Shown one piece after another: positions 8,664 to 30,010 of a stretch of 62,144 nucleotides of DNA (position 1 is its first letter; the number at the start of each line of letters is the position of its first letter). The notes under the pieces were generated by a model that worked only from the letters and a program-made list of their open reading frames with translations, had not been told where the DNA came from and searched no databases. The translations under genes were made by a program, and so were the position numbers. Source of the DNA: a phage; the sequence record PX021331.1. One strand, written 5' to 3'.

Positions 8664-8753
8664 TTTGCATCAACCTTCTTAATGTCTTAACTTTACAACG
8701 TGCGGGGACGGCCTCGCACGTTTCGTGACACGGGTCACACAATGGAGATTATT

Positions 8754-9638
8754 ATGCGTAAGAACTTAATTACAGTCGCACTGGCTCACTTCGGTGCTAT
8801 CGCCTTTGCTTTACCTCGTTTCGGCGGTATTGCATTGGAGTACAGCTCCGAGGACGATGTCCCGGAAGCCCACAAAGAACTGTATACCGAACGAGACGGT
8901 AAATGGGTCCTCACTGGTGTTGACGGTGGCGGCTATGATAACGTTCGCCGTTTGGAAGGCTCCCTGGAAAAGGAGCGCAAGGACCACAAGGACACGAAAG
9001 GTAAGTATTCCAAGTTGAGCGGCAAGAACATTGACGAGCTGCTGGAACGCGATTCCCAATTCGACGAACTGAAGATCCGCGCTGAAAGTAACAAGCTCGA
9101 CGACAGCAAGATCGAAGAGATGGTTTCGATCCGTCTGAAGCAGAAGCTGGCGCCGATTGAGCGTGAGCGTGATGAGTGGAAGGGTAAAGCTACTACCTTT
9201 GAAACTCAGGTGAGCGAGCTGACTGGCAAAGAGAAGTCCCGCGCTATCCGCGACAGCATCCGTAAGGCGGCAAGCACGCATAAAGCACTCGACACCGCAA
9301 TCGAAGATATCGAAGTGCTGGGTGAGCGCCTGTTTGAGATTGACGACTCCGGCCGCATCGTTGCGAAAGAGAACGTCGGTATCACTCCAGGGATCGACCC
9401 TGCAATGTGGTTAGGTGACCAGCGTGACAAGAAACCGCACTGGTTCCCGGGCAACGTCGGCGGTGGCTCCGGTGGCGGTAAAGGTAACGGCGGTGGCGGT
9501 GTCAACCCGTGGAGTCACGACGGTTGGAACCTGACCGAGCAGGGTAAAATCCTGCGTGAAAACAAAGAGAAAGCGACCCGCATGGCTTCCATGCACGGCG
9601 TGGATATTAACAACCCGAAACGTCCTGCTAAAAAATAA
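8754..9638 (+). CDS. scaffolding protein (positional)
   Basis: Internal ATG with GGAG 6 nt upstream; highly charged Lys/Glu/Asp-rich protein with Gly-rich C-terminus, between portal and major capsid. Confidence 0.55.
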   Translation: MRKNLITVALAHFGAIAFALPRFGGIALEYSSEDDVPEAHKELYTERDGKWVLTGVDGGGYDNVRRLEGSLEKERKDHKDTKGKYSKLSGKNIDELLERDSQFDELKIRAESNKLDDSKIEEMVSIRLKQKLAPIERERDEWKGKATTFETQVSELTGKEKSRAIRDSIRKAASTHKALDTAIEDIEVLGERLFEIDDSGRIVAKENVGITPGIDPAMWLGDQRDKKPHWFPGNVGGGSGGGKGNGGGGVNPWSHDGWNLTEQGKILRENKEKATRMASMHGVDINNPKRPAKK

Positions 9639-9692: not shown

Positions 9693-9774
9693 ACGGGCTC
9701 CAGTTCATATAGGAAATTTGGAGCCGTCCACGGGGATATGGCGCCATTAACTTAAATCGTTTGTGGAGACGACC

Positions 9775-10890
9775 ATGTCTAAAATCATCTTGGGAGCGCC
9801 GATGCTGAACCTTCGCGCAACCAATTCCGTTATCCGTGATGCCGTCCGTCGTGGTGCTATCGCGGAACTGTCAAGCATCATTGTTCCTGAGATCTTCGTG
9901 CCGTACGTGCAAAACCGTACCACTGAGAAATCCCGTCTGGTTCAGTCCGGCGCCTTACAGGTTTCCGAACGTCTGAACGCCGCGCTCCAGGGCGAAGGTA
10001 CTACCTTCAACCAGCGCTTCTTCCGTGATCTGGATCGCAGCGACGAAGAGAACGTATCCTCTGCGTCCAACCCTGCTGATTCTACTCCGGACGGTATCAG
10101 CTCTGGCAACGAAGTTCAGGTTCGCCTGTCTCGAAACAACTCTTGGGGCTCCGCTGACCTGCTGGACTCCCTGATCTCCGTCGACCCGATGGATGCTATT
10201 GCCAACCTCGTAGCTGGCTGGCGTGCCGGTCGTTTGCAGCGTGCATTCGTTGCAACCGTTAAGGGTGTATTCGCAATGAACGCCGCGGCGCCTGTTACCA
10301 CTGGTGACAAAGCGTCTACGCACACTCAGAACGATATGTCCCATAACATCTCCGGTGCTTCGTTCATCGACGGTACTACCAACTTCAACCCGGCCGCAGT
10401 AATTCTGGCGTCTGGTACGATGGGTGACTCCCTGAACGAGCTGACCATGATGATGGTCCACTCCGTAGTCTACCAGCGTATGCAGTTGCTGAACCTGATC
10501 GACTACATCCCGGATTCGCGCGGTGAGACAATGATCTCCACCTACATGGGCCGTGAAGTTATCGTTGATGACTCCATGCCTGCGTCGAACGGTGTGTTCG
10601 AAACCTGGCTGGTCGGTGCTGGTGCATTCCAGCTCGGTAGCGGTTCCCCGAAAGTTCCGCTGGAGATCGAGCGTAAGCCTGCCTCCTATAACGGTGGTGG
10701 TTCTGAAGTTATGTACCATCGCTGGGAAAACATCATTCACCCTGTTGGACATGCGTGGGTCGGTACTGCTGCTGAAGGCGGCCCGAACAACGCCGGTCTG
10801 GCAACTGGTGCGAACTGGGCGCGTAAGTTCCCTGAGCGCAAACAGATCAAAGTCGCGCGTCTGGTCACCCGCGAATTTGCAGGGTCTTAA
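9775..10890 (+). CDS. major capsid protein
   Basis: 371 aa from ATG with GGAG 6 nt upstream (track start 9763 is a GTG); biased highly-expressed-type codon use; after scaffold; followed by a strong terminator. Confidence 0.7.
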   Translation: MSKIILGAPMLNLRATNSVIRDAVRRGAIAELSSIIVPEIFVPYVQNRTTEKSRLVQSGALQVSERLNAALQGEGTTFNQRFFRDLDRSDEENVSSASNPADSTPDGISSGNEVQVRLSRNNSWGSADLLDSLISVDPMDAIANLVAGWRAGRLQRAFVATVKGVFAMNAAAPVTTGDKASTHTQNDMSHNISGASFIDGTTNFNPAAVILASGTMGDSLNELTMMMVHSVVYQRMQLLNLIDYIPDSRGETMISTYMGREVIVDDSMPASNGVFETWLVGAGAFQLGSGSPKVPLEIERKPASYNGGGSEVMYHRWENIIHPVGHAWVGTAAEGGPNNAGLATGANWARKFPERKQIKVARLVTREFAGS

Positions 10891-10910: not shown

Positions 10911-10932
10911 AAAGGGCCTTCGGGCCCTTTTT
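10911..10932 (+). terminator. rho-independent terminator (stem AAAGGGCC/GGCCCTTT, TTCG loop)
   Basis: GC stem with tetraloop and T-run directly after the capsid stop. Confidence 0.6.
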
Positions 10933-10958
10933 CGTAAGCAACTAAGAAGGGGATAAAA

Positions 10959-11300
10959 ATGCGATACGGCCGACATCTTCGTCACAGACGACATAGCAGA
11001 CATGAACGCTGGGGCTTTAAGCTCCGTGAGAATGCGGCTGGTCCGTTGACGGTGTCACTCCCTGCGACGTTATCCGTTGCCACTGGTGCGGCGATTAACA
11101 TTGCAGGGACTATCACGGGTGGCGTTGCACCTCTGAGCTACGCATGGAAGAAAGGGTCTACGGCTGTAGGTGGCAACACGCCGACTTATAACGTACCGAC
11201 CGCGGCAGCAGGTAACGCTGGCAGCTATACGTTGACAGTCACTGATGCTACAGGGAAGTCCGTGACTTCCAACGCCTGCGCTGTTACAGTAACCGCATGA
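10959..11300 (+). CDS. Ig-like domain protein (possible capsid decoration protein)
   Basis: 113 aa; strong SD AAGAAGGGGA; C-terminal PLSYAWKKGSTAVGGNTPTYNVPTAAAGNAGSYTLTVTDATGKSVTSNACAVTVTA is an Ig-like repeat also found at the C-terminus of the major tail protein; basic His/Arg-rich N-terminus. Confidence 0.55.
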   Translation: MRYGRHLRHRRHSRHERWGFKLRENAAGPLTVSLPATLSVATGAAINIAGTITGGVAPLSYAWKKGSTAVGGNTPTYNVPTAAAGNAGSYTLTVTDATGKSVTSNACAVTVTA

Positions 11301-11336
11301 TCACAGCCTTACGGTAAGGTTGTGACATTTGATAGA

Positions 11337-11374
11337 GGGGTGCTACACTTCAGACTGTAGTACCCCTTTTATTT
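11337..11374 (+). terminator. rho-independent terminator (stem GGGGTGCTAC/GTAGTACCCC, T-run)
   Basis: 10-bp stem with one G-U pair followed by TTTTATTT. Confidence 0.5.
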
Positions 11375-11387
11375 AGAGGATAGGACA

Positions 11388-12179
11388 ATGAAACAGAAGA
11401 TTGTAGAAGCGTTGCAGAAACTGGATCCGCAGAACGACAACCAGTGGACTCAGGATGGTCTTCCGAAGCTGGACGCACTGAAGTTCCTGGTTGGCGATAC
11501 CGTGACCCGTGAGCAGGTGCAAGAAGCCGCTCCGGACTTCACCCGTACCAACACGACTATCGGGGAGAAGGCTAACGATGGTTCTAATGACCGCGCAGTC
11601 GACAATGCTGCCGTCCAGGTCTCTACGGACGAGCAAAAGAACTCCATCTCTCCTGATGGCACCGTTGCTGGCGCTGCCGCAGAGCTGGGTAAAGAGACCC
11701 AATCGCACGAGATCCCTTACAATGAACCTGTATCGGATCCAGGAAAAGTGGGCCTCAACGCACCAGACCCGGCAACCGTGGAAGAAGTGAAAGCCAGCGG
11801 TAATGTGGTCACCATGTCTGTAGGCGTCAACGTTGAGCTGTCAGATGTGCTGAAGAACTTCATCGGTGACTTCCATGAGAAACCGATCTCTGAGCTGTCT
11901 GACGAAGAGCTGCTGAAACTGCATGAAGCTCACAATGACATCGTATCCGCTGACAACGAGTTCCAGTCCGCGGTGAACGAGTTCATTCGTAAGCGTGCGT
12001 TCTACCTGAACGACGTTGCAACTGCTGTTCACGATCGCGTTCTGCAGGAAACGACTATGGATCAGCTGGCAGCGTTCCGCGCTCAGGTTGGTTCTGGTAA
12101 AGACCTGCCGGTGAACCGTCCGCAGCAAGTTCAGCGCCGCGGACCTCAGTTCCTGGGCCACGGTAAGAAAGAGGATTAA
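11388..12179 (+). CDS. hypothetical structural protein
   Basis: 263-aa acidic ORF with SD GAGGA, in the head module. Confidence 0.6.
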   Translation: MKQKIVEALQKLDPQNDNQWTQDGLPKLDALKFLVGDTVTREQVQEAAPDFTRTNTTIGEKANDGSNDRAVDNAAVQVSTDEQKNSISPDGTVAGAAAELGKETQSHEIPYNEPVSDPGKVGLNAPDPATVEEVKASGNVVTMSVGVNVELSDVLKNFIGDFHEKPISELSDEELLKLHEAHNDIVSADNEFQSAVNEFIRKRAFYLNDVATAVHDRVLQETTMDQLAAFRAQVGSGKDLPVNRPQQVQRRGPQFLGHGKKED

Positions 12180-12307: not shown

Positions 12308-12817
12308 ATGGCTGCGACATTGATTGTGGAGACTGGTACGGGCAACCCTGATGCCAACTCTTACGTCACAGCTGATTTCGTCCGCAACTACCTCGAAGGA
12401 CGCGGGGTAGTTGCTCCGGCGGATGATAAGCTAATCCCCATGATCATTCAGGCAGCTGACTTCATGGAGTGTATCCCGCGCTATGCGGGCCGTAAGACCA
12501 ACTACGACCAGGCCTTGCAGTACCCGCGCACAGGCGTTCGTATTGATCGCCAACCCATACCCATTGACGGCGTGCCGGTAGCGCTACAGCGTGCCCAGGC
12601 GCAGCTTGTTATGGATCAGGTGCAGAGCGGTAAACCGCTTTTATCTAGCAAGACCGAATACGCGCTCAAGCGTCGTACGCTGGGCCCGTTGACCCAAGAG
12701 TGGGCAGTGGGTAGCAACCAGCAAGTCCAGGGCGCTACACCTCACCCGCGCTTCTGGTCATATATGAACCTGTTCTTGCTGGGTGGAGGTAACAGCAACG
12801 GTGGAGTGATACGATGA
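12308..12817 (+). CDS. head-tail connector/adaptor-like protein (positional)
   Basis: 169-aa ORF in head-completion block. Confidence 0.55.
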   Translation: MAATLIVETGTGNPDANSYVTADFVRNYLEGRGVVAPADDKLIPMIIQAADFMECIPRYAGRKTNYDQALQYPRTGVRIDRQPIPIDGVPVALQRAQAQLVMDQVQSGKPLLSSKTEYALKRRTLGPLTQEWAVGSNQQVQGATPHPRFWSYMNLFLLGGGNSNGGVIR

Positions 12818-13185
12818 CCATCGCTAGCGAATTTTATGACATGGCTGTAGAGATGTTGTCTGACCCTGAGATTGGGTTTGACGGCACTTTGCAACTGAAG
12901 GTAACAACGCCTAACCCTGCGAAGCCTTGGGATCCTACTGTAACGACCGAAAACGTTGCTATCCGTCTGTTCTACACAGACCAGAAAGCGGGGTTCGTTA
13001 ACGGTAGCCCAATCGCTAAAGGTGAAAAGGTGTTTCTTTGCTATGCACCGCAAGGCTACGACTTCGGTACTATCGAAGGTGCGAGCTTCACTGACCACAA
13101 GAACCGCAAATGGAAAGTGAACGCCGTAGAGGTAATCGGTGCGGGTAACGTCGACATCGTTTATTATCTGAAGATAGGTGTATAA
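12814..13185 (+). CDS. head-tail joining protein (positional)
   Basis: 123-aa ORF, ATGA-coupled to neighbours. Confidence 0.6.
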   Translation: MTIASEFYDMAVEMLSDPEIGFDGTLQLKVTTPNPAKPWDPTVTTENVAIRLFYTDQKAGFVNGSPIAKGEKVFLCYAPQGYDFGTIEGASFTDHKNRKWKVNAVEVIGAGNVDIVYYLKIGV

Positions 13186-13598
13186 TGGCTAGACCTCGTT
13201 TCCGTGACCAGTTCACTAAAGCGCAGTTGAACGCAATGCAGGCAGCGGCCAAGCAGGTCAAGCAGCGAGCCTATGGCTTCGTTGCTGCCGTAGTGGATGA
13301 CACACCTGTAGATACTGGCGCAGCTAAAGGCGGGTGGCAGATTGTTAAGTCACCAGACCAGATCACGGAGGATACTCCGCTTGATCCAACTGGCGCAGAA
13401 ACGAAGGCAATGCTGATTAAGAAGATCCGCTATCTCCCTATTCACATGGACTGGGATATCTACTTCGGTAACGGTAAACCGTATATCTCCCGCCTGGAGT
13501 ACGAAGGTTATTCCAAGCAGGCTCCGAATGGTATGCTTCGCAAGAACATTGCACGCGGCGGTGAAGCCTTCAACGGATTTAAATTGGGAGACTTCTAA
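13185..13598 (+). CDS. HK97 gp10-like neck/tail-completion protein
   Basis: 137 aa; DTPVDTGAAKGGW resembles the VDTG motif I recall for the HK97 gp10 family; coupled starts. Confidence 0.5.
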   Translation: MARPRFRDQFTKAQLNAMQAAAKQVKQRAYGFVAAVVDDTPVDTGAAKGGWQIVKSPDQITEDTPLDPTGAETKAMLIKKIRYLPIHMDWDIYFGNGKPYISRLEYEGYSKQAPNGMLRKNIARGGEAFNGFKLGDF

Positions 13599-14071
13599 TG
13601 AGCTATCCATTCGATTGGGTGGAAGATCTTGTCAAGTCACATCTGGCAGCAGCTATCCCTGACCTAATTGCGTCGAATAGCGTTGCCTGGAAGAACTGGA
13701 CATTTGACCCCGCTGGCCGTACAGTGTGGTTAAAAGTTATCAATACGCCCGTCACTGAAGAAGGTGTCACATTAGGTCCGACTGGCGATAACGAACTCCG
13801 CGGTTACTTGCAGGTTGGCGTCTACTCGGAGCTTAACACTGGTACAGCGGAAAGTAACGAAGTCTATGGGCGCGTCAGTAAGGCTTTTGACGTACCCTTT
13901 AGATTAGCAGGCCCTGCGACAGATAGCTTCTTAAGGTTTACCAGTAAGGGATATTCACAAGGTGGACAGACCTCAATTGGTGACTTTACACGGGGTGGCA
14001 CAGAAGGCGTCTGGGATGCGAATTACATTACGATATACTGGCTCGCACGTGAGCCTAAACAGAGGACATAA
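13598..14071 (+). CDS. tail terminator-like protein (positional)
   Basis: 157-aa ORF immediately before the major tail protein. Confidence 0.55.
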   Translation: MSYPFDWVEDLVKSHLAAAIPDLIASNSVAWKNWTFDPAGRTVWLKVINTPVTEEGVTLGPTGDNELRGYLQVGVYSELNTGTAESNEVYGRVSKAFDVPFRLAGPATDSFLRFTSKGYSQGGQTSIGDFTRGGTEGVWDANYITIYWLAREPKQRT

Positions 14072-14073
14072 AG

Positions 14074-15246
14074 ATGGCTGAAGGTTCACGCTACAGTAGC
14101 TATTTTATCAAGGAGGCGTCTTCCGGTGTCACCCCTGCAACGGGGCAACTGAAGATCTTCCGTGCTACCAAATCGGGGCTGGATATCAACATCGCAACTT
14201 TGCAGTCTGAAGAGATCCGCGACGATGCGGAAATCGCAGACTTCCGCCTGGGCACCCGCCACGTTGAAGGCACGGCGTCAGCTGAACTGTCCTACGAGAC
14301 GTTCGATGACCTGTTGGCCGCAGCGTTGCGCTCTACCTTTGTGGGTAACGTTGTGAAGGGTGGCATCCTGCGTCAATCCTTTACCTTTATCGACTACAAC
14401 GCCGACATCACTGACTTCCCGTATACCATCTACAAAGGTTGCGAGATTAACACTGTAGCGATTACCGTTGCAGCGTCTGCGATGGTTGGTATTGAGTTCG
14501 GTATCGTTGGTCGCTCCATGGAGCCGCTGGCAGCACTTCCGGCAGGTCTGACGGTGGGTTCCCGTACCACTACCAGCCCGATGGATGGCTTCTCCGGTGC
14601 GCTGAAGATGGGTTCTACGGTGGTGGATGTTATCACCGAGATGGCTATCAACCTCGAGAACGGCATTGAGCCGCGCTTCGTTGTTGGTTCCAAATACTCC
14701 ATCAAGCCTGGTGCGAAACGCCGTAACGTCAGCGGTACACTGACAGCATACTACGAAGACAACGCGCTCCGTAGCAAGTTCCTCAATGAGGAAGAAAGCA
14801 TTCTGTCAATTGACATCCTGGACGGTACTACTGGCGCGGGCTACCGCTTCGAACTTCCACGCATTAAGATCACTGAAGCACCTCGTCCGATTGATGGCGA
14901 AGGTGACATCATGCTCAACATGAGCTATCAGGGTCTGCTGGATCAGTCTAAAGGTTACAGCGTGCAGATCACGAAGCTGACTCCGATCACCTTCACTACC
15001 AACTTGACTCCAACTAAGTCGGTAGCAACGGGTGACGCGCTGACTATGACTGTTGCAGTTAGCGGCGGGACTACGCCTTACACCTACGTCTGGAAGAAAG
15101 GCGGCGTAGTTGTATCAGGCCAAACTACCGCCACCTTCAACAAGGCGAGCGCAGCGGCAGGAGATGCAGGGAGTTACGTCTGTGAAGTTACCGACGCAAC
15201 TGGTCGCACCGTGTCAAGTGTTGCATGTCTGGTGAACGTAACTTAA
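14074..15246 (+). CDS. major tail (tube) protein with C-terminal Ig-like domain
   Basis: 390 aa; before chaperone and tape measure; C-terminal ~70 aa is an Ig-like domain (PYTYVWKKGGVVVSGQ...AAAGDAGSYVCEVTDATGRTVSSVACLVNVT); strong terminator follows. Confidence 0.75.
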   Translation: MAEGSRYSSYFIKEASSGVTPATGQLKIFRATKSGLDINIATLQSEEIRDDAEIADFRLGTRHVEGTASAELSYETFDDLLAAALRSTFVGNVVKGGILRQSFTFIDYNADITDFPYTIYKGCEINTVAITVAASAMVGIEFGIVGRSMEPLAALPAGLTVGSRTTTSPMDGFSGALKMGSTVVDVITEMAINLENGIEPRFVVGSKYSIKPGAKRRNVSGTLTAYYEDNALRSKFLNEEESILSIDILDGTTGAGYRFELPRIKITEAPRPIDGEGDIMLNMSYQGLLDQSKGYSVQITKLTPITFTTNLTPTKSVATGDALTMTVAVSGGTTPYTYVWKKGGVVVSGQTTATFNKASAAAGDAGSYVCEVTDATGRTVSSVACLVNVT

Positions 15247-24161: not shown

Positions 24162-24947
24162 ATGCCAGCAGGAACAATATTACTGACAGAAAACTCTACG
24201 GCGGTTCTTGGTGCGGGTACAACCTTCACGACTGACGTCGTAGCAGGTAACGTCATTGCAGCAACCGCCAACGGTATTACCTACGCGCTACAGGTTAAAA
24301 GCGTAACGTCGAACACTGCCTTAGTTCTGGAGAAGCCCTACGTGGGCTTCACCGCTTCTAACCTTGCTTATAACGTCATGCCTGCGAGCCTGCTTATGCA
24401 GGTTCCCGCGCAACTGTCTTACGACGTTCAATATCTCATGCGTGCATTTATTTATGAGAAGGACGCATGGACTAAACTGTTAACTGAGTCACAGAACGAA
24501 GTTACCATTAAAGCACCTGACGGGACTGAAGTAAAAGGTCCAACGTGGAAGTATCTGGTAGAGCTTGTTGAGCAGGCGACCAGCGTTGATCCTAACCCGC
24601 CACCGACTACTGCATTCGGCTTGTATAAGGCCAGGGCGTTGTCGGTGACCACAACGGCAGCTCTTGATCTGAGCCTTGCTTCCTCGTGGGTATTGACCCT
24701 CAACTCCCCTAACTGTACAATTTCGTTCAGTAAGCCGAGTACGCTCACCGATGTCACGCAAGAGATTTCTATTAAGCTCAAGCAGGGTAACGGGACGAAC
24801 AAGGTTACATGGCCGAGCAATATTAAATGGCCAAACGGGATCCCTCCGACTCTGTCTTACACAGCAAACAAGATCGATGTGATCACGCTGGTAAGCGACG
24901 ACAAGGGTGTCACATGGTATGGGTTCTTTGCTGGAGCTTCCTTCTAA
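24162..24947 (+). CDS. tail/fibre-associated protein
   Basis: 261-aa ORF between J-like protein and large fibre. Confidence 0.6.
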   Translation: MPAGTILLTENSTAVLGAGTTFTTDVVAGNVIAATANGITYALQVKSVTSNTALVLEKPYVGFTASNLAYNVMPASLLMQVPAQLSYDVQYLMRAFIYEKDAWTKLLTESQNEVTIKAPDGTEVKGPTWKYLVELVEQATSVDPNPPPTTAFGLYKARALSVTTTAALDLSLASSWVLTLNSPNCTISFSKPSTLTDVTQEISIKLKQGNGTNKVTWPSNIKWPNGIPPTLSYTANKIDVITLVSDDKGVTWYGFFAGASF

Positions 24948-27900
24948 TGAATATACAACTGCTCGCGACGCGACGCAGTGCCATCACGCAGGCCATAGCG
25001 CTTGCGTATGGTCACGAGGACTTTTTGCAGCGTAATACAGGGCTGACGATTGACGCACACGTCCAGCACTATCTCATCAACCCTGACGGGGTGTTGTCTA
25101 ACAACCGTCACTTCATTGCGGACACGATGGCCGAGTACCAGCCTAACGGCGACGGTACTACGGAAGGGCAGGCTCTGCTGATCATCGGTCACTGCCATAT
25201 GTATCTGGCGACCAAAGATGAAACGTTCCTTAACCTTGCGAAGCAAGCCTGGGACGCTTACATCAACTATTTCTATGCTGGGCAAGCGATACCAACTACG
25301 CCGCAACGCTTCATCTGCAACTGGCTGGTAAACAGCAAAGAGCCGGTGTTGGCTAACTACCCCGTAAACCCCACAGAACCGACGCAGGGCGGTTTTAAGA
25401 GCGTACCCCTCGTCTTTATTAACGGTACGGCGCAAATCCCCCACGGTGCCCCGTTTTGGGGCGAATATTTGGACACTGCAACCATTGCACACCGCGGCCA
25501 TATGACGTGGGAAGCAATCAACGCATCTGTTCAAAAGATCAAGGAAGACGTGGACGGCCTTATTGACTGGAACGTCGTGTACAACAACTGGCGCATCACA
25601 ACGGGTGTGACAGAACCGTGGAACTCACAGGCGTGGATCAATTGGGTGGGCTACCTGGGCGACACTTATACTCCGGTATGGGGTGGCACTGACCCGAAAG
25701 CTAAAGAGTATCCAGTAGAGACCATCGTTGCATGGACTGGTAACAAAATCGATCCTGACTCTGGTGATATTATACAGAGCGGTTTACCGGAAGCCGATAA
25801 AGGTAAGATCGTGCTCCGCGACAAGACCATCAACGGGGTATGGCTGTTCAACTACGCGACTAAGAACCCTGTAAGCGCAGGCGGTTACTTGTTCGCACGT
25901 AATGAACCGTGGCACAACCGCCCAGTCCATACCCCGTTCATGGCGCTCAAGAATAACCCGCCAAGCTATAACCAGCTAGGCAACGCAGCGGACGCTGAAT
26001 TGTGGTTTATTGACGCCTGTTACCTGCTTTGGCGTATTACTGGTGAGACTAAGTACAAGCGAGCGCTCGATTGCTGCTTCTACACCGCTCACGAATACAC
26101 CTATATCGACTCAACGGATAAATATTTCCGTCAGAGTAAGGCAGCTACTACCCCATTCACGGATGGTATCTCGTACGACTTTACTTATCCGAACACCACA
26201 CTGATCGAGTACGGTCGTGACGCGAACGGTTACATCACTGTCGCAGCTAATGCTGAATCACAGCACTTCCTGGAGCAGCAATCCGTCTGGTTCCGTGTTG
26301 ACCAGAACGCAAAACTGCGAACTGTCTACGGTGGGCTGGGTAACGCTGGGGCGCTGGTAGGTTGCAAGGTTATGCTCGACGTTAGTGCGACTAAGACTGA
26401 GGTCACGAACCCTACATGGTACGGGATTTCACTTCCTAAGTCCTCCAGCATGACACCAGTTCAACGCGACGTGTCTATCACTTCGCTTGCACTGATGACT
26501 AACCCTATCACGAACGACGACTACCTCGTAGCTGACGCACGCGCTGCAACCGATTACGGTGGATGTGTATGGGTTGAAGCATTCGAGAGCGGTGTTAACG
26601 GTGACCGTGAAGGAACCATCATTAAAGCAACCTTCCCGAACGAAGATGCTGGTTTCATTATCGGGTTCTGGCTAACTCAGGACGAACTGGTGAACCCTGT
26701 CTCCATTACCTATCGCGCGGATGCACAGTTCAACATGCGTGTAACGGATGACAATCTGTGGCGCTGGTATTGGATGCTACCTGCAACGAACGGTCAATGG
26801 GCGACCGTGTCCGTCAGTAAAGCGAGCGCAACGCTGTCAGGCTACCAGCCGGATCACCCTACTGATCCAGCACCGAGCGCACCAGCTTACAGCCGACTGA
26901 CGCAGATTACAATCGTGCAGGACGGTAACGTAGCGAACGCGCATTTCGATTACTACTGCGTTAACGATATTCCACCTCTGTTTAATATCTCCAATGGTTG
27001 GACGATGACGTATCGTATGATGCTCAACTCCAGCGAACCGTGGAAAGCAGTGGTTGGCGACTGTACGATTATTGATTACCGTCTGGACTCCCTTGCGTAT
27101 ACGCCTGGAACCATACCGTTCTCAAACATCTACTCAGAAGGGTCAGACCAGATTGGCGCTTGGCATGGTATGCCTTACCCTGGCTATCAATACCCGTTCA
27201 TGTACACCATTCACAAGCATCCGGAGAACTATGCCTGGTGGTTCCAGAACCAGATAGACTTCATGTTTGAGAGCCAGGCGGCGTATGCAAGCAAGGTAGG
27301 CCAGCTGGGCCCAGGGTGTGCCGCTTACATCTGGAACCGTTGGGATAACTATAAATACGGAAAAGCGGATACGTGGGTCAACTACCATTGGGGCGACGGG
27401 CACCCGTGGGCCGGCTACCAGCCGCGCGCATACAACGCCGCTGCTCGTGCATGGTACGAGCTCAAAGTCCGCGGACAAGCCGTACCAGTGCGCCTACAGC
27501 AGTACGTAGAAAACTGGGCTGTATGGCTGGTAGACTTTGCACGCCGTTACCCTGGCAAAACGCCTAACGACTTCCCGTCCGGTGACGTTCCTGCTGTATG
27601 GGTGGCAGACGATTTCACCGCTCACATGTGTGCATTGTGGTTAGCAGGTAGCGCCTTTGCACTTATGGCAGGTTGCGAGGTCGAAGGGCTGGAGCAGCTT
27701 TGCGAATATGCAGTTAAAGAACTAAGTGAAGGGTACACCGTAACCAGCACACCAGGCGCAGGGATCAACGGTGCATGGTCACCAGCAGCGCGTGAAGGTA
27801 CGGACAATGGTATGGCCTTCGGGTTCTACACTGGTGAGATTTACCGTGGGCTGGGCATGTACATGATGTACAAAGAGTTCGGTCCTGGTTATAACATCTA

Positions 27901-30010
27901 CGCGAACACCGCTATCCCGGCGCACGCGAACGCAGTTATTGACCAGAACAGCGGTATCGTAGACCCTACTTCACTGTCCATTAGCCCTATCAATAAGAAG
28001 GTCTACTATCGGGGTGTAACGCACCGACTGAACCTTATTATTACGCCTTCCATGCAGCAGGTAAAAGGGACGTGGAGCTTTACCCGCACCTCGGGCAGTG
28101 GCGCAGGCCCAATTCAGCTTAACGCCACCACAGGTGAGTTCACTGTCGTTGGGAGTGGAAACTTTAGCGTCAAGTTTGAAGGGACAGACACCAAAGGCGT
28201 GGCAGTAAGCGCGACGCAGACGGGCGGGGTTGCTAATGGTTATCAGGTGACCACAGTTAATCCGTCGGTCTACCCTGTCATTCCTGCTGGTGAAGCAACT
28301 TCCGTGAAGGTTAATCCTGGAGCTGAGTTCCTTGCGCAGCCTGGTCTCCGTATTGGGTTCAGCAGCAACGCACCTGATAGCAGAGCGACCGTTGATGGTA
28401 CGACTGGTGAGATCCTTACCCTGCCAGGTGGTACGTACCCGTCATCAGCTTACACTATCACGGTGAAGGTGTTCGCGTACCAGGATTTAATCTTTAGCGA
28501 GCAAGTTACTTTCCAGGTCGGGAAACCGCTTACAGGTCTTAATATTGCATGGCAACCGGCAGCGGACGCAACCTTTGACGGGAACACGTTAACAATGAAG
28601 TATCTGGAGGACTTTGCAAACTCACAGATTAACTTCGTTGTCACACCAGTGCCTAGCGATGCAGTGCGCGGAGACATTACAGTTACGTCCGCGGCACCAA
28701 CGAAGGCGAAGGTTGCAGCAAGTAGCCCAGCTGACTTTGGTGTCACGCCTGTTGCAGTGGACGTCACTGGTACAGTGTTCACGGTACGCGCGTTCAGCAA
28801 GGCTAAGACTATTACGGTCAAGACGCTGGAAGCGAGTCGCCCAACTGGCCCGGTTCCTGCTACCAGCATCCAGATCTACGAGGGTGAGACCATCAGTATG
28901 GACTACACTGGTGGGGGTGAGGACTACACCCTTCACGCGCAGGTGTTGCCTGTTGGTGCAACGGACACAAGCTATACGTGGAACTCGTCAGACACTACCG
29001 TCCTTGAAATTGCATTCGACGGTAAAGTAACGTTGAAGAAAGGTGGCACCGCTACCGTGACAGCAACGTCTACGGATGGAGGTTTCACTGACTCTATCGT
29101 TGTTACCGTTATTGACCGGACGCTCCCTGTTCCTGCGACTGGTGTTACTATAGACGAAGGTGCGTCTATTAGCTACAACTGGACTGGCGTTGCTGGTACT
29201 AACGTTCTTCATGCAACGGTTGCACCGTCCAACGCAGCTAATAAGGCGGTTACATGGTCGTCCAGCAATACATCGGTTCTGACTATCGACGCAACAACTG
29301 GCGCCGTAACCCTCGTTAAGTATGGGTCTGCGACGGTGACAGTAACTACCGCCGACGGTGGGTTTACGGACACTATTGCGGTGACGGTTGTAGACAAACG
29401 ACCTGTAACGGATGTCAGTACCGCGTCGAACTACGATTATGTCGTAGGTGGAACCAACATGCCAGCTCTGCCAATCCAGATCACACCGGCGGACGCGCAG
29501 GGTTACACCTTGGCTTACTCACTGGTCGACAGCGTGGGCGTGCCTACTACCATTGCGGGGATTACAATCAACGCCACTACAGGCGCAGTGACCATCGCAA
29601 GCGGTACAGCAGACAACAACTTCCGCGTGAAGGTACAGTTGACGGACAGCTCAGGTAATGTGGTCAGTGATTACAGCGAGGTTAAACTCTACAACCTCAG
29701 CATCACTACTGACACCATCCCGAACTCCCGTACACTGAAAGTCGGTCAAACTTATACGTTGGGCTTCACTTATGACAACGCGATTGACTTTAAATACGAC
29801 TTCGGCGGGGCTTCGATCAACGGGCCACAACCAACGTTGAGCTCTACAGCAGGTGGATCAGCTGCTAGCATGGTAACTATTAACGCTGACGGGTCTGTAA
29901 CTATCAAGTCAGACGCAACCGTCGGGACAGGTGGGAACCTTGGCAGAACGGTCACCTACTACGGGGCAACCGCGTCGGACACATCATCGTTTACGATAGT
30001 GGCGGCGTAG
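24947..30010 (+). CDS. large tail fibre protein with tandem Ig-like (Big_2-type) domains
   Basis: 1687 aa from ATG overlapping upstream stop (track start 24827 lies inside the upstream gene); large Trp/Tyr-rich N-terminal domain, then repeated Ig-like units (e.g. ...KKGGTATVTATSTDGGFTDSIVVTVID and ...KYGSATVTVTTADGGFTDTIAVTVVD). Confidence 0.7.
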   Translation: MNIQLLATRRSAITQAIALAYGHEDFLQRNTGLTIDAHVQHYLINPDGVLSNNRHFIADTMAEYQPNGDGTTEGQALLIIGHCHMYLATKDETFLNLAKQAWDAYINYFYAGQAIPTTPQRFICNWLVNSKEPVLANYPVNPTEPTQGGFKSVPLVFINGTAQIPHGAPFWGEYLDTATIAHRGHMTWEAINASVQKIKEDVDGLIDWNVVYNNWRITTGVTEPWNSQAWINWVGYLGDTYTPVWGGTDPKAKEYPVETIVAWTGNKIDPDSGDIIQSGLPEADKGKIVLRDKTINGVWLFNYATKNPVSAGGYLFARNEPWHNRPVHTPFMALKNNPPSYNQLGNAADAELWFIDACYLLWRITGETKYKRALDCCFYTAHEYTYIDSTDKYFRQSKAATTPFTDGISYDFTYPNTTLIEYGRDANGYITVAANAESQHFLEQQSVWFRVDQNAKLRTVYGGLGNAGALVGCKVMLDVSATKTEVTNPTWYGISLPKSSSMTPVQRDVSITSLALMTNPITNDDYLVADARAATDYGGCVWVEAFESGVNGDREGTIIKATFPNEDAGFIIGFWLTQDELVNPVSITYRADAQFNMRVTDDNLWRWYWMLPATNGQWATVSVSKASATLSGYQPDHPTDPAPSAPAYSRLTQITIVQDGNVANAHFDYYCVNDIPPLFNISNGWTMTYRMMLNSSEPWKAVVGDCTIIDYRLDSLAYTPGTIPFSNIYSEGSDQIGAWHGMPYPGYQYPFMYTIHKHPENYAWWFQNQIDFMFESQAAYASKVGQLGPGCAAYIWNRWDNYKYGKADTWVNYHWGDGHPWAGYQPRAYNAAARAWYELKVRGQAVPVRLQQYVENWAVWLVDFARRYPGKTPNDFPSGDVPAVWVADDFTAHMCALWLAGSAFALMAGCEVEGLEQLCEYAVKELSEGYTVTSTPGAGINGAWSPAAREGTDNGMAFGFYTGEIYRGLGMYMMYKEFGPGYNIYANTAIPAHANAVIDQNSGIVDPTSLSISPINKKVYYRGVTHRLNLIITPSMQQVKGTWSFTRTSGSGAGPIQLNATTGEFTVVGSGNFSVKFEGTDTKGVAVSATQTGGVANGYQVTTVNPSVYPVIPAGEATSVKVNPGAEFLAQPGLRIGFSSNAPDSRATVDGTTGEILTLPGGTYPSSAYTITVKVFAYQDLIFSEQVTFQVGKPLTGLNIAWQPAADATFDGNTLTMKYLEDFANSQINFVVTPVPSDAVRGDITVTSAAPTKAKVAASSPADFGVTPVAVDVTGTVFTVRAFSKAKTITVKTLEASRPTGPVPATSIQIYEGETISMDYTGGGEDYTLHAQVLPVGATDTSYTWNSSDTTVLEIAFDGKVTLKKGGTATVTATSTDGGFTDSIVVTVIDRTLPVPATGVTIDEGASISYNWTGVAGTNVLHATVAPSNAANKAVTWSSSNTSVLTIDATTGAVTLVKYGSATVTVTTADGGFTDTIAVTVVDKRPVTDVSTASNYDYVVGGTNMPALPIQITPADAQGYTLAYSLVDSVGVPTTIAGITINATTGAVTIASGTADNNFRVKVQLTDSSGNVVSDYSEVKLYNLSITTDTIPNSRTLKVGQTYTLGFTYDNAIDFKYDFGGASINGPQPTLSSTAGGSAASMVTINADGSVTIKSDATVGTGGNLGRTVTYYGATASDTSSFTIVAA
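28853..29400 (+). repeat. tandem duplicated Ig-like coding unit (~270 nt x 2, diverged) inside the fibre gene
   Basis: Two adjacent ~90-aa units with the same pattern (VPATxxxIxEGxxIS...TW(N/S)SS(D/N)T(T/S)VL(E/T)I...GGFTD(S/T)I(V/A)VTV(I/V)D). Confidence 0.5.

Follow-up and report, generated by a model that had tools for sequence, protein, structure and literature searches.

The 62,144-nt stretch of phage DNA analysed here (record PX021331.1; this whole stretch is called the window) raises the question why an immunoglobulin (Ig)-like domain is found both on a small protein encoded directly behind the major capsid protein (MCP) gene and at the C-terminus of the tail tube protein, and what the Arg/His-rich peptide at the start of the small protein is for. 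Likeness between the Ig domains of head and tail proteins is in itself ordinary and well known in phages. Apparently undescribed so far is the peptide, a near-invariant putative anchor of ~19 residues with a period-3 Arg/His(Tyr) pattern that occurs in at least three recognised genera while the cargo behind it changes freely. The reading that we favour, with some reservation, is that the small protein (113 aa; 10959..11300, + strand), which consists of an Arg/His repeat and an Ig-like domain, is a two-module, pb10-like virion accessory with a basic minimal anchor, most likely located on the outside of the SPP1-type capsid. No description of an R-[H/Y]-x anchor was found in the literature searched on Nonagvirus, Seuratvirus and Queuovirinae decoration proteins, Ig-like domains and cryo-electron microscopy.

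The proposed virion or capsid anchor comprises codons 1-19 (MRYGRHLRHRRHSRHERWG; 10959..11015, +), which read as M-(R-[H/Y/W]-x)x6 with the period-3 units RYG-RHL-RHR-RHS-RHE-RWG and in which 8 of the 19 residues are Arg and 5 are His. The protein thus fits an N-terminal pattern M-(R-[H/Y]-x)n ending in [HY]-E-R-[HYW] (MRYGRHLRHRRHSRHERW), and a linker, FKLRENAAGP (codons 20-29; 11016..11045, +), separates the anchor from the Ig domain. The same starting peptide is present in the orthologues of phages vB_Kpn2-P2, Ec1-ASingh, Enterobacter phage EC151 and 9g as well as in several metagenomic contigs. In an alignment of proteins with mixed cargo (n=10), all 9 invariant columns fall within the first 17 residues (M1, R2, R5, R8, H9, R11, R14, E16, R17), and the linker codons are variable in both of our alignments, A1 and A2, save for G28 and P29. 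When the first 30 residues were compared by phmmer with 1.84 billion representatives, the only matches were protein P0005 and the cadherin-repeat adhesin P0093, the latter matching the linker; a second RH-type repeat is absent from all six frames of the window. The 9g orthologue, gp54 (L002:2677-3120), has seven R-[H/Y]-x units, the extra one being RYQ, and most 9g-type homologues have six; the six-unit homologues are far more abundant than the 9g form (e.g., P0027 with 211 member sequences). The head of 9g is reported to be slightly elongated (PMC4276943).

The first-pass annotation had quoted this ORF (open reading frame) together with its RH-rich N-terminus, and both are present as quoted; its doubt about the true start can be dismissed. 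The annotated ATG at 10959 is right: it is the first start codon 3′ of an in-frame TAA (10935-10937) and is preceded, 5 nt upstream, by a Shine-Dalgarno-like sequence (GAAGGGGA; 10946-10953, +). The arrangement “taagaaggggataaaa ATG” is kept in the related loci L001, L004, L005 and L008, and TAGGAGG or AGGAGA stands in its place in 9g, EC151 and L006. Comparison of the window with vB_Kpn2-P2 showed that 5 of codons 1-19 are identical, 13 differ synonymously and 1 non-synonymously, against 12 identical, 19 synonymous and 62 non-synonymous among codons 20-112. These counts indicate that the His/Arg-rich peptide is translated and that no other part of the protein is as strongly constrained. Two other ways of expressing the region were considered and rejected. 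Fusion to the MCP by frameshifting or read-through conflicts with the different reading frames, the in-frame TAA at 10935-10937, the ORF's own Shine-Dalgarno site and an intervening hairpin. An internal start that would drop the RH peptide conflicts with the lack of any internal ATG, the synonymous drift at the codon level and the retention of the peptide across cargo classes.

It is scarcely credible that the ORF is a spurious or decaying frame without a product. Its shortness, its odd N-terminal composition, its position between two terminator-like hairpins and a Pfam Ig_2 score under the gathering threshold might point that way, but length, start codon, Shine-Dalgarno site and synteny are conserved across genera, purifying selection is strong, more than 35 protein clusters exist in public data, and one homologue, gp07 of Pantoea phage Vid5, has been seen by mass spectrometry.

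The cargo of the small protein in the window is an Ig-like beta-sandwich of the type seen in the pb10 C-terminal domain and in Hoc (codons 30-113 plus stop; 11046..11300, +), which we propose to be the displayed part. The best PHROG match of the protein is phrog_2973, “Hoc-like head decoration” (5e-22), and phmmer searches against the PDB returned pb10 (8zvi_a, 8.9e-16; 5lxk_A, 5.9e-15) and Hoc (3shs_A, 1.3e-5). The Pfam Ig_2 match is weaker (E=1e-4; 22.9 bits against a cut-off of 27), and close homologues have precomputed matches to PF13895 and PF13927. In an AlphaFold2 (AF2) model built with 22 homologues, residues 30-113 form 10 strands with a pLDDT (predicted local distance difference test) score >90. 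Foldseek aligned this model with probability 1.00 to N4 gp17, the Moo19 decoration protein, I-set domains of Dscam and NCAM, and Hoc. Among solved structures, those closest in fold are thus Ig-like decoration proteins of the N4 and Moo19 capsids, I-set domains from eukaryotes and the Hoc of RB49.

A survey of repeat and cargo that combined profile and sequence searches, context look-ups and sampled genomes located the repeat in Nonagvirus, Seuratvirus, Vidquintavirus and allied unclassified phages. It is joined to a pb10-type Ig (113-116 aa) in the window, the vB_Kpn2-P2 group, EC151, loci L001, L003 and L004 and proteins P0001-P0025; to a more typical I-set Ig in Seuratvirus Dru_SM1; to a Big_2 domain (120-126 aa) in P0019, P0029, P0034 and P0037; and to a beta-rich phrog_18016 domain with a weak He_PIG match (136-147 aa) in 9g gp54, P0026-28, P0031, P0035 and P0039. 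In Vid5 gp07 and P0095 it is followed only by a 21-residue acidic tail (40 aa). The cargo domains occur on other scaffolds too, as indicated by P0089, a metagenomic protein of 243 aa in which a 9g-gp54-type domain and a Big_2 domain follow a different, non-basic N-terminus.

The tail tube, too, varies at its C-terminus. The tube protein of the window (390 aa; 14074..15246, +) consists of a Phage_tube_2 domain (PF18906; residues 10-287, 7e-42) and a C-terminal Ig-like domain (residues about 303-390; roughly 14980..15243, +), and its residues 1-300 match the major tail structural protein 8xan_B in the PDB (5.5e-64). The Ig part scores above the Pfam cut-offs, with 32.6 bits for Ig_3 (cut-off 30; residues 311-373) and 28.0 bits for Ig_2 (cut-off 27). 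Whereas the window and vB_Kpn2-P2 carry a pb10-type Ig on both the small protein and the tube, EC151 has the pb10-type Ig on the small protein and a Big_2-like domain (weak match) on the tube, L005 and L008 have Big_2 on the small protein and the pb10-type Ig on the tube, and 9g combines a phrog_18016 domain with a pb10-type tube Ig. L006 has the phrog_18016 domain and a tube without cargo (308 aa), and Vid5 lacks cargo on either protein (tube of 310 aa). Thus, head-proximal and tail cargo vary independently across related phages, and the presence of the “same domain on both” proteins is one combination among several.

The first-pass annotation had put the identity of the two Ig domains in the window at about 50 percent by eye and had explained it by domain shuffling within this genome. 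The domain is indeed common to both proteins: in a BLASTP alignment of 101 aa with tube residues 290-390, 45% of the positions are identical and 61% positive (E=4e-17), and the by-eye estimate proved accurate, since tblastn with the domain only gives 52% over 83 aa (14995..15243, E=1e-23). This likeness is far beyond chance, and the small ORF and the tube gene are the only significant Ig copies found by tblastn in the window. That one of the two was copied recently from the other, the small-ORF Ig from the phage's own tube gene or the reverse, would account for 45-52% identity between two domains of one genome. We nevertheless regard this as very improbable, because both domains resemble their positional orthologues in other phages far more than they resemble each other. 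The tube Ig is 77% identical to that of vB_Kpn2-P2 and 73% to P0032, an Ig-domain protein from E. coli chromosomal contigs, against 51% to the small-protein Ig of its own genome; for the small-protein Ig, identity to the positional orthologues is 59-88%. In a neighbour-joining tree of 23 Ig domains, the small-ORF domains of 13 phages and contigs form one clade and the tube domains a separate one that also includes Ig domains of proteins from unrelated sources, so that the split follows the host protein and not the genome. Moreover, in sister phages one of the two proteins bears unrelated cargo. What stands of the earlier proposal is therefore one Ig-like family on both proteins, one of which is the tail tube, and not the shuffle within this genome. 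The resemblance is better explained by two acceptor sites that share a common, horizontally exchanged domain pool.

A third, weak match of the small-ORF Ig (29120-29389, E=0.037) lies inside a 1727-aa ORF (24827..30010, +), whose product presumably acts as a tail fibre or in host recognition. Several Big_2-like repeats stand in tandem towards the C-terminus of this product, the third Ig-bearing structural protein of the genome.

In contrast to the cargo, the genomic position of the repeat is constant. In each locus examined, the repeat gene lies directly 3′ of the MCP gene and 5′ of the adaptor and neck genes. In Vid5, a depolymerase gene is inserted between gp08 and the adaptor gene, and the adjacency of the repeat gene to the MCP gene is kept. 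The repeat gene is absent, and other genes occupy the slot, in Nipunavirus, Sphingomonas phage MMDA13, Stenotrophomonas phage BUCT627, two Vibrio phages, PW916 and Kagunavirus; these relatives are the ones with more distant SPP1-type capsids. Three proteins encoded behind the MCP gene in such phages, MMDA13 gp06 (L011:2613-3131), Nipunavirus Quinobequin gp70 (L012:2589-3098) and Kagunavirus St162 gp44 (L018:2609-2899), have a common N-terminal motif, M(x)KGLPRS(L/T), which may be another lineage-specific anchor. St162 gp45, labelled “tailspike”, consists of 116 aa with a single Ig.

The anchor reading is most strongly supported by Vid5, whose ORF07 product, gp07, was described as lacking homologues and was identified in virions by liquid chromatography-tandem mass spectrometry, with the site within the particle left unspecified (PMC6266253). 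The protein of 4.78 kDa was covered to 57.5% by 2 peptides (PMC6266253 Table S3). Its sequence (AVJ51762; MNKSRYVRYRRHSRYIRYRANVNETPVEPPEEGGETGEGQ) aligns without gaps to the repeat of the window, sharing R5, R8, R10, R11, H12, S13, R14 and R17 and exchanging H and Y at positions 6, 9 and 15. As in the window, its gene lies 3′ of the MCP gene and a hairpin, in Vid5 a GGGCC one. Hence, what is essentially an anchor-only protein is carried in phage particles. As a query, the 40-aa Vid5 gp07 retrieved itself and one more anchor-only protein, P0095. The phage 9g paper contains no proteomics.

Based on these observations and by analogy with T5 pb10, we propose that residues 1-19, which are strongly basic and probably helical, attach the protein electrostatically to the particle, most likely to the capsid surface, and that the Ig domain (residues 30-113) projects into the solvent, where exposed Ig-like domains are thought to make weak carbohydrate contacts. 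The anchor would be the conserved, lineage-defining part, and the cargo would be exchangeable and drawn from an Ig pool that also feeds the tube C-terminus. With its own ribosome-binding site behind a hairpin, the small gene probably yields less product than the MCP gene, as expected for a sub-stoichiometric decoration.

This hairpin is a terminator-like GC stem-loop (AAAGGGCC-TTCG-GGCCCTTT at 10911-10930 plus a T run; 10911..10932, +) between the MCP stop codon and the ribosome-binding site of the small gene. The “capsid terminator” of the first-pass annotation is real, with a free energy (dG) of -13 kcal/mol upon direct folding; an automatic terminator scan did not list it, because the stem runs into the T run. 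All 9 of the 9 anchor-bearing loci have a hairpin with a T tract at the equivalent position, with differing stems and dG values of -12 to -20 kcal/mol. Many of the loops are stable tetraloops, namely TTCG in the window, L005 and L008, TACG in L001 and L004, and GCAA in Vid5. That position is kept while the stems vary fits selection for structure rather than sequence. The hairpin may attenuate transcription and thereby keep the accessory protein in lower amounts than the capsid protein. Two further hairpins follow the small gene (11298..11375, +), the second of which (11335-11368; GAGGGGTGCTACA...TGTAGTACCCCTT) leads into a T-rich tract; most relatives have a second hairpin as well. This intergenic region folds with -37 kcal/mol (z=-6.1), and none of 200 shuffled sequences was equally stable.

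Several points weigh against a placement on the capsid surface. The Vid5 data concern virion association only, of a homologue that is fairly divergent and lacks cargo, and the assignment of the window protein and of every cargo-bearing member to the capsid is indirect. The PDB search with the MCP returned SPP1 only, with no 9g-like capsid structure among the hits. Among acidic MCP residues, a single column, E69, is specific to anchor-bearing phages, which lends no support from co-variation. In the AF2 model, the helix spanning residues 6-27, which ends, as the first strand begins, within linker codons 20-29, has low confidence (pLDDT 54-63). Lastly, orthologues are labelled “tail protein” or “tail fibers protein” in the databases.

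The latter labels are also what one would expect of a neck, collar or tail accessory whose repeat docks on the connector or tail and whose Ig decorates it like a whisker. The location of the gene between the MCP and connector genes, the matches of the Ig to a “putative neck whiskers protein gp24” (9occ_A, 3e-5) and to major tail protein PHROGs, and the lack of localisation of gp07 in the Vid5 proteomics would all suit such a role. We consider it rather unlikely, since MCP adjacency and the upstream hairpin are kept where downstream genes differ, as with the depolymerase insertion of Vid5, and the best family matches are head decoration proteins. Moreover, the “tail” labels probably follow from Ig-domain homology, the same error as once occurred with pb10, which was mis-annotated as a tail protein owing to its Ig domain (PMC7602432). 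Of the display on head and tail that had been proposed for the Ig domain, the tail part holds for the tube protein, and head association of the small protein is plausible in view of its gene behind the MCP gene, its Hoc-like PHROG and its pb10 matches.

An Arg-rich N-terminus could also be a nucleic-acid-binding motif of the lambdoid N or single-stranded RNA virus capsid-arm type, which would act on packaged DNA or an RNA hairpin in a regulatory or internal role. The 8 Arg and 5 His within a predicted helix resemble such motifs in composition only, stable hairpins flank the gene, and the presence of gp07 in Vid5 virions would suit an internal DNA-bound peptide. However, the fused cargo is always of the extracellular, Ig-like type that is typical of exposed virion surfaces, and nothing would explain the swapping of such domains in a protein with an internal or regulatory role. 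The hairpin stems vary while the peptide is near-invariant, which argues against a specific RNA-peptide pair, and our searches found no homology to N proteins. A nucleic-acid-binding role is thus improbable.

If the peptide does bind the capsid, its period of three is of interest. In an alpha-helix, each of the six period-3 Arg residues would be turned by 60 degrees relative to the one before, and the Arg/Lys moment, taken for 100 degrees per residue, is only 1.0 of 7, so that the helix has no single basic face. One tentative and rather doubtful model derived from this geometry treats the 18-residue repeat as a symmetry adaptor, in which R2, R5, R8, R11, R14 and R17, each with its adjacent His or Tyr, point outward in a pseudo-six-fold array. 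The helix would then be inserted on the quasi-six-fold axis of an MCP hexamer so that every subunit meets one Arg-aromatic pair, allowing a single asymmetric monomer to bind a six-fold site via a peptide of ~2 kDa, and the His residues might make binding pH-tunable. Were this correct, no smaller anchor of a capsid decoration would be known, and the repeat could serve as a display tag as it stands. More generally, the question arises how a symmetric capsid site is recognised by a monomer.

A close parallel to the small protein as a putative capsid accessory is T5 pb10 (5LXK, 8ZVI), which is likewise small and monomer-sized, runs from an N-terminal anchor through a linker to a C-terminal Ig, and has a homologous Ig (~1e-15). 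The positively charged N-terminal domain of pb10 binds an acidic hexamer centre formed by MCP A-loops, leaving its Ig-like C-terminal domain solvent-exposed (PMC5292684). The pb10 anchor, with ~75 residues folded into five helices, is about four times as long as the 19-residue repeat of the window, and the two show no sequence similarity; in line with this, the match covers pb10 residues 70-158 and query residues 27-112 only, and with 29 residues before the Ig the window protein lacks the pb10 N-terminal domain. The MCPs also belong to different lineages, that of the window being SPP1 gp13-like.

T4 Hoc and Hoc-like proteins (phrog_2973, phrog_4069; 3SHS, 5VF3) also present I-set-type Igs on the head and match in sequence and fold. 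Hoc is reported to combine a conserved capsid-binding module with variable Ig modules (PMC10385173). In contrast, the window protein has one C-terminal Ig (ending ...VTVTA) and an N-terminal peptide anchor, and the Hoc matches comprise Ig domains only, the C-terminal capsid-binding domain, which in Hoc follows tandem Igs, being absent. Ig-like domains are known from major tail proteins, tail fibres, heads and decoration proteins and are horizontally exchanged (PMC7602432, its reference 89). This survey fits the Igs on the tube, the small protein and the 1727-aa fibre-like protein of the window, and it covers the cargo and not the anchor.

Closer relatives are Vid5 gp07 and 9g gp54 (YP_009032377; phrog_18016), positional orthologues that are encoded directly behind the MCP gene and begin with the repeat seen in the window. 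They differ from the window protein in that the former has an acidic tail without an Ig and the latter seven units and a different, beta-rich cargo. Both had been recorded as “hypothetical” or without homologues, and the sequence comparisons made here link them to the Ig-bearing forms. Reference 89 of the decoration-protein review is reportedly Fraser et al. 2006. For the SPP1-type capsid itself, the known decoration is SPP1 gp12, a trimer whose gene lies upstream of that for the MCP. It decorates the hexamer centres of a capsid whose MCP (gp13) is homologous, and the two genes adjoin (PMC5292684, PMC7602432). Unlike the window protein, gp12 is collagen-like and alpha-helical (PMC5292684, PMC7602432) and lacks an Ig, and no sequence similarity between the two was found.

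If the repeat is a capsid-binding element, groups now labelled “hypothetical”, “tail protein” or “tail fibers protein”, including phrog_18016 and Vid5 gp07, would constitute one functional family. These phages would then offer a natural anchor-plus-exchangeable-cargo design, with independent assortment of the domains displayed on head and tail. The repeat would also be a very short candidate display tag for SPP1-type capsids; the pb10 N-terminal domain (~75 aa) and whole decoration proteins such as T4 Soc or lambda gpD are far larger.

The window is the genome of a siphovirus akin to the 9g-like phages (Queuovirinae). Its closest public relatives are the Klebsiella phages vB_Kpn2-P2 and K9PH25C2, with only ~76% nucleotide identity across the capsid-to-tail-tube region. 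The gene order is portal, scaffold (8700..9638), MCP (9763..10890, +), the 113-aa ORF, a 263-aa protein (11388..12179, +), adaptor Ad1 (12308..12817), three further neck or head-completion ORFs (12814..14071) and the tail tube. The MCP, directly upstream of the small ORF, has an SPP1 gp13-like HK97 fold, as judged from matches to phrog_247 (major head protein, 8e-104) and to the SPP1 coat protein in the PDB (4an5/6r3a, E=2e-41); its match to the Pfam Gp13-like family is weak. An extra N-terminal segment of ~25 residues (..GAPMLNLRATNS..RRGAI..; 9763..9860) is present in the MCPs of the window, vB_Kpn2-P2, 9g, L005 and L008, and is missing from EC151, the Seurat-type loci (L006, Dru_SM1) and more distant relatives. 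This segment may represent a propeptide that is cleaved off or an extension of the N-arm, and the listed GTG start at 9763 may be too far upstream.

The 263-aa protein, encoded directly after the small ORF, belongs to phrog_10966, which is conserved and has no assigned function; Pfam and PDB searches gave no matches. Its N-terminus (M..KIVEAL.KLDP.N...WT.DGLPK) is kept even in Vibrio phages without the RH-repeat gene, and it may be another head or neck component. In the related metagenomic contig L008 (L008:1-2191), the large terminase region carries a LAGLIDADG/Hom_end insertion, either an intein or a homing endonuclease, within a product of 875 aa (PF14528 and PF05204).

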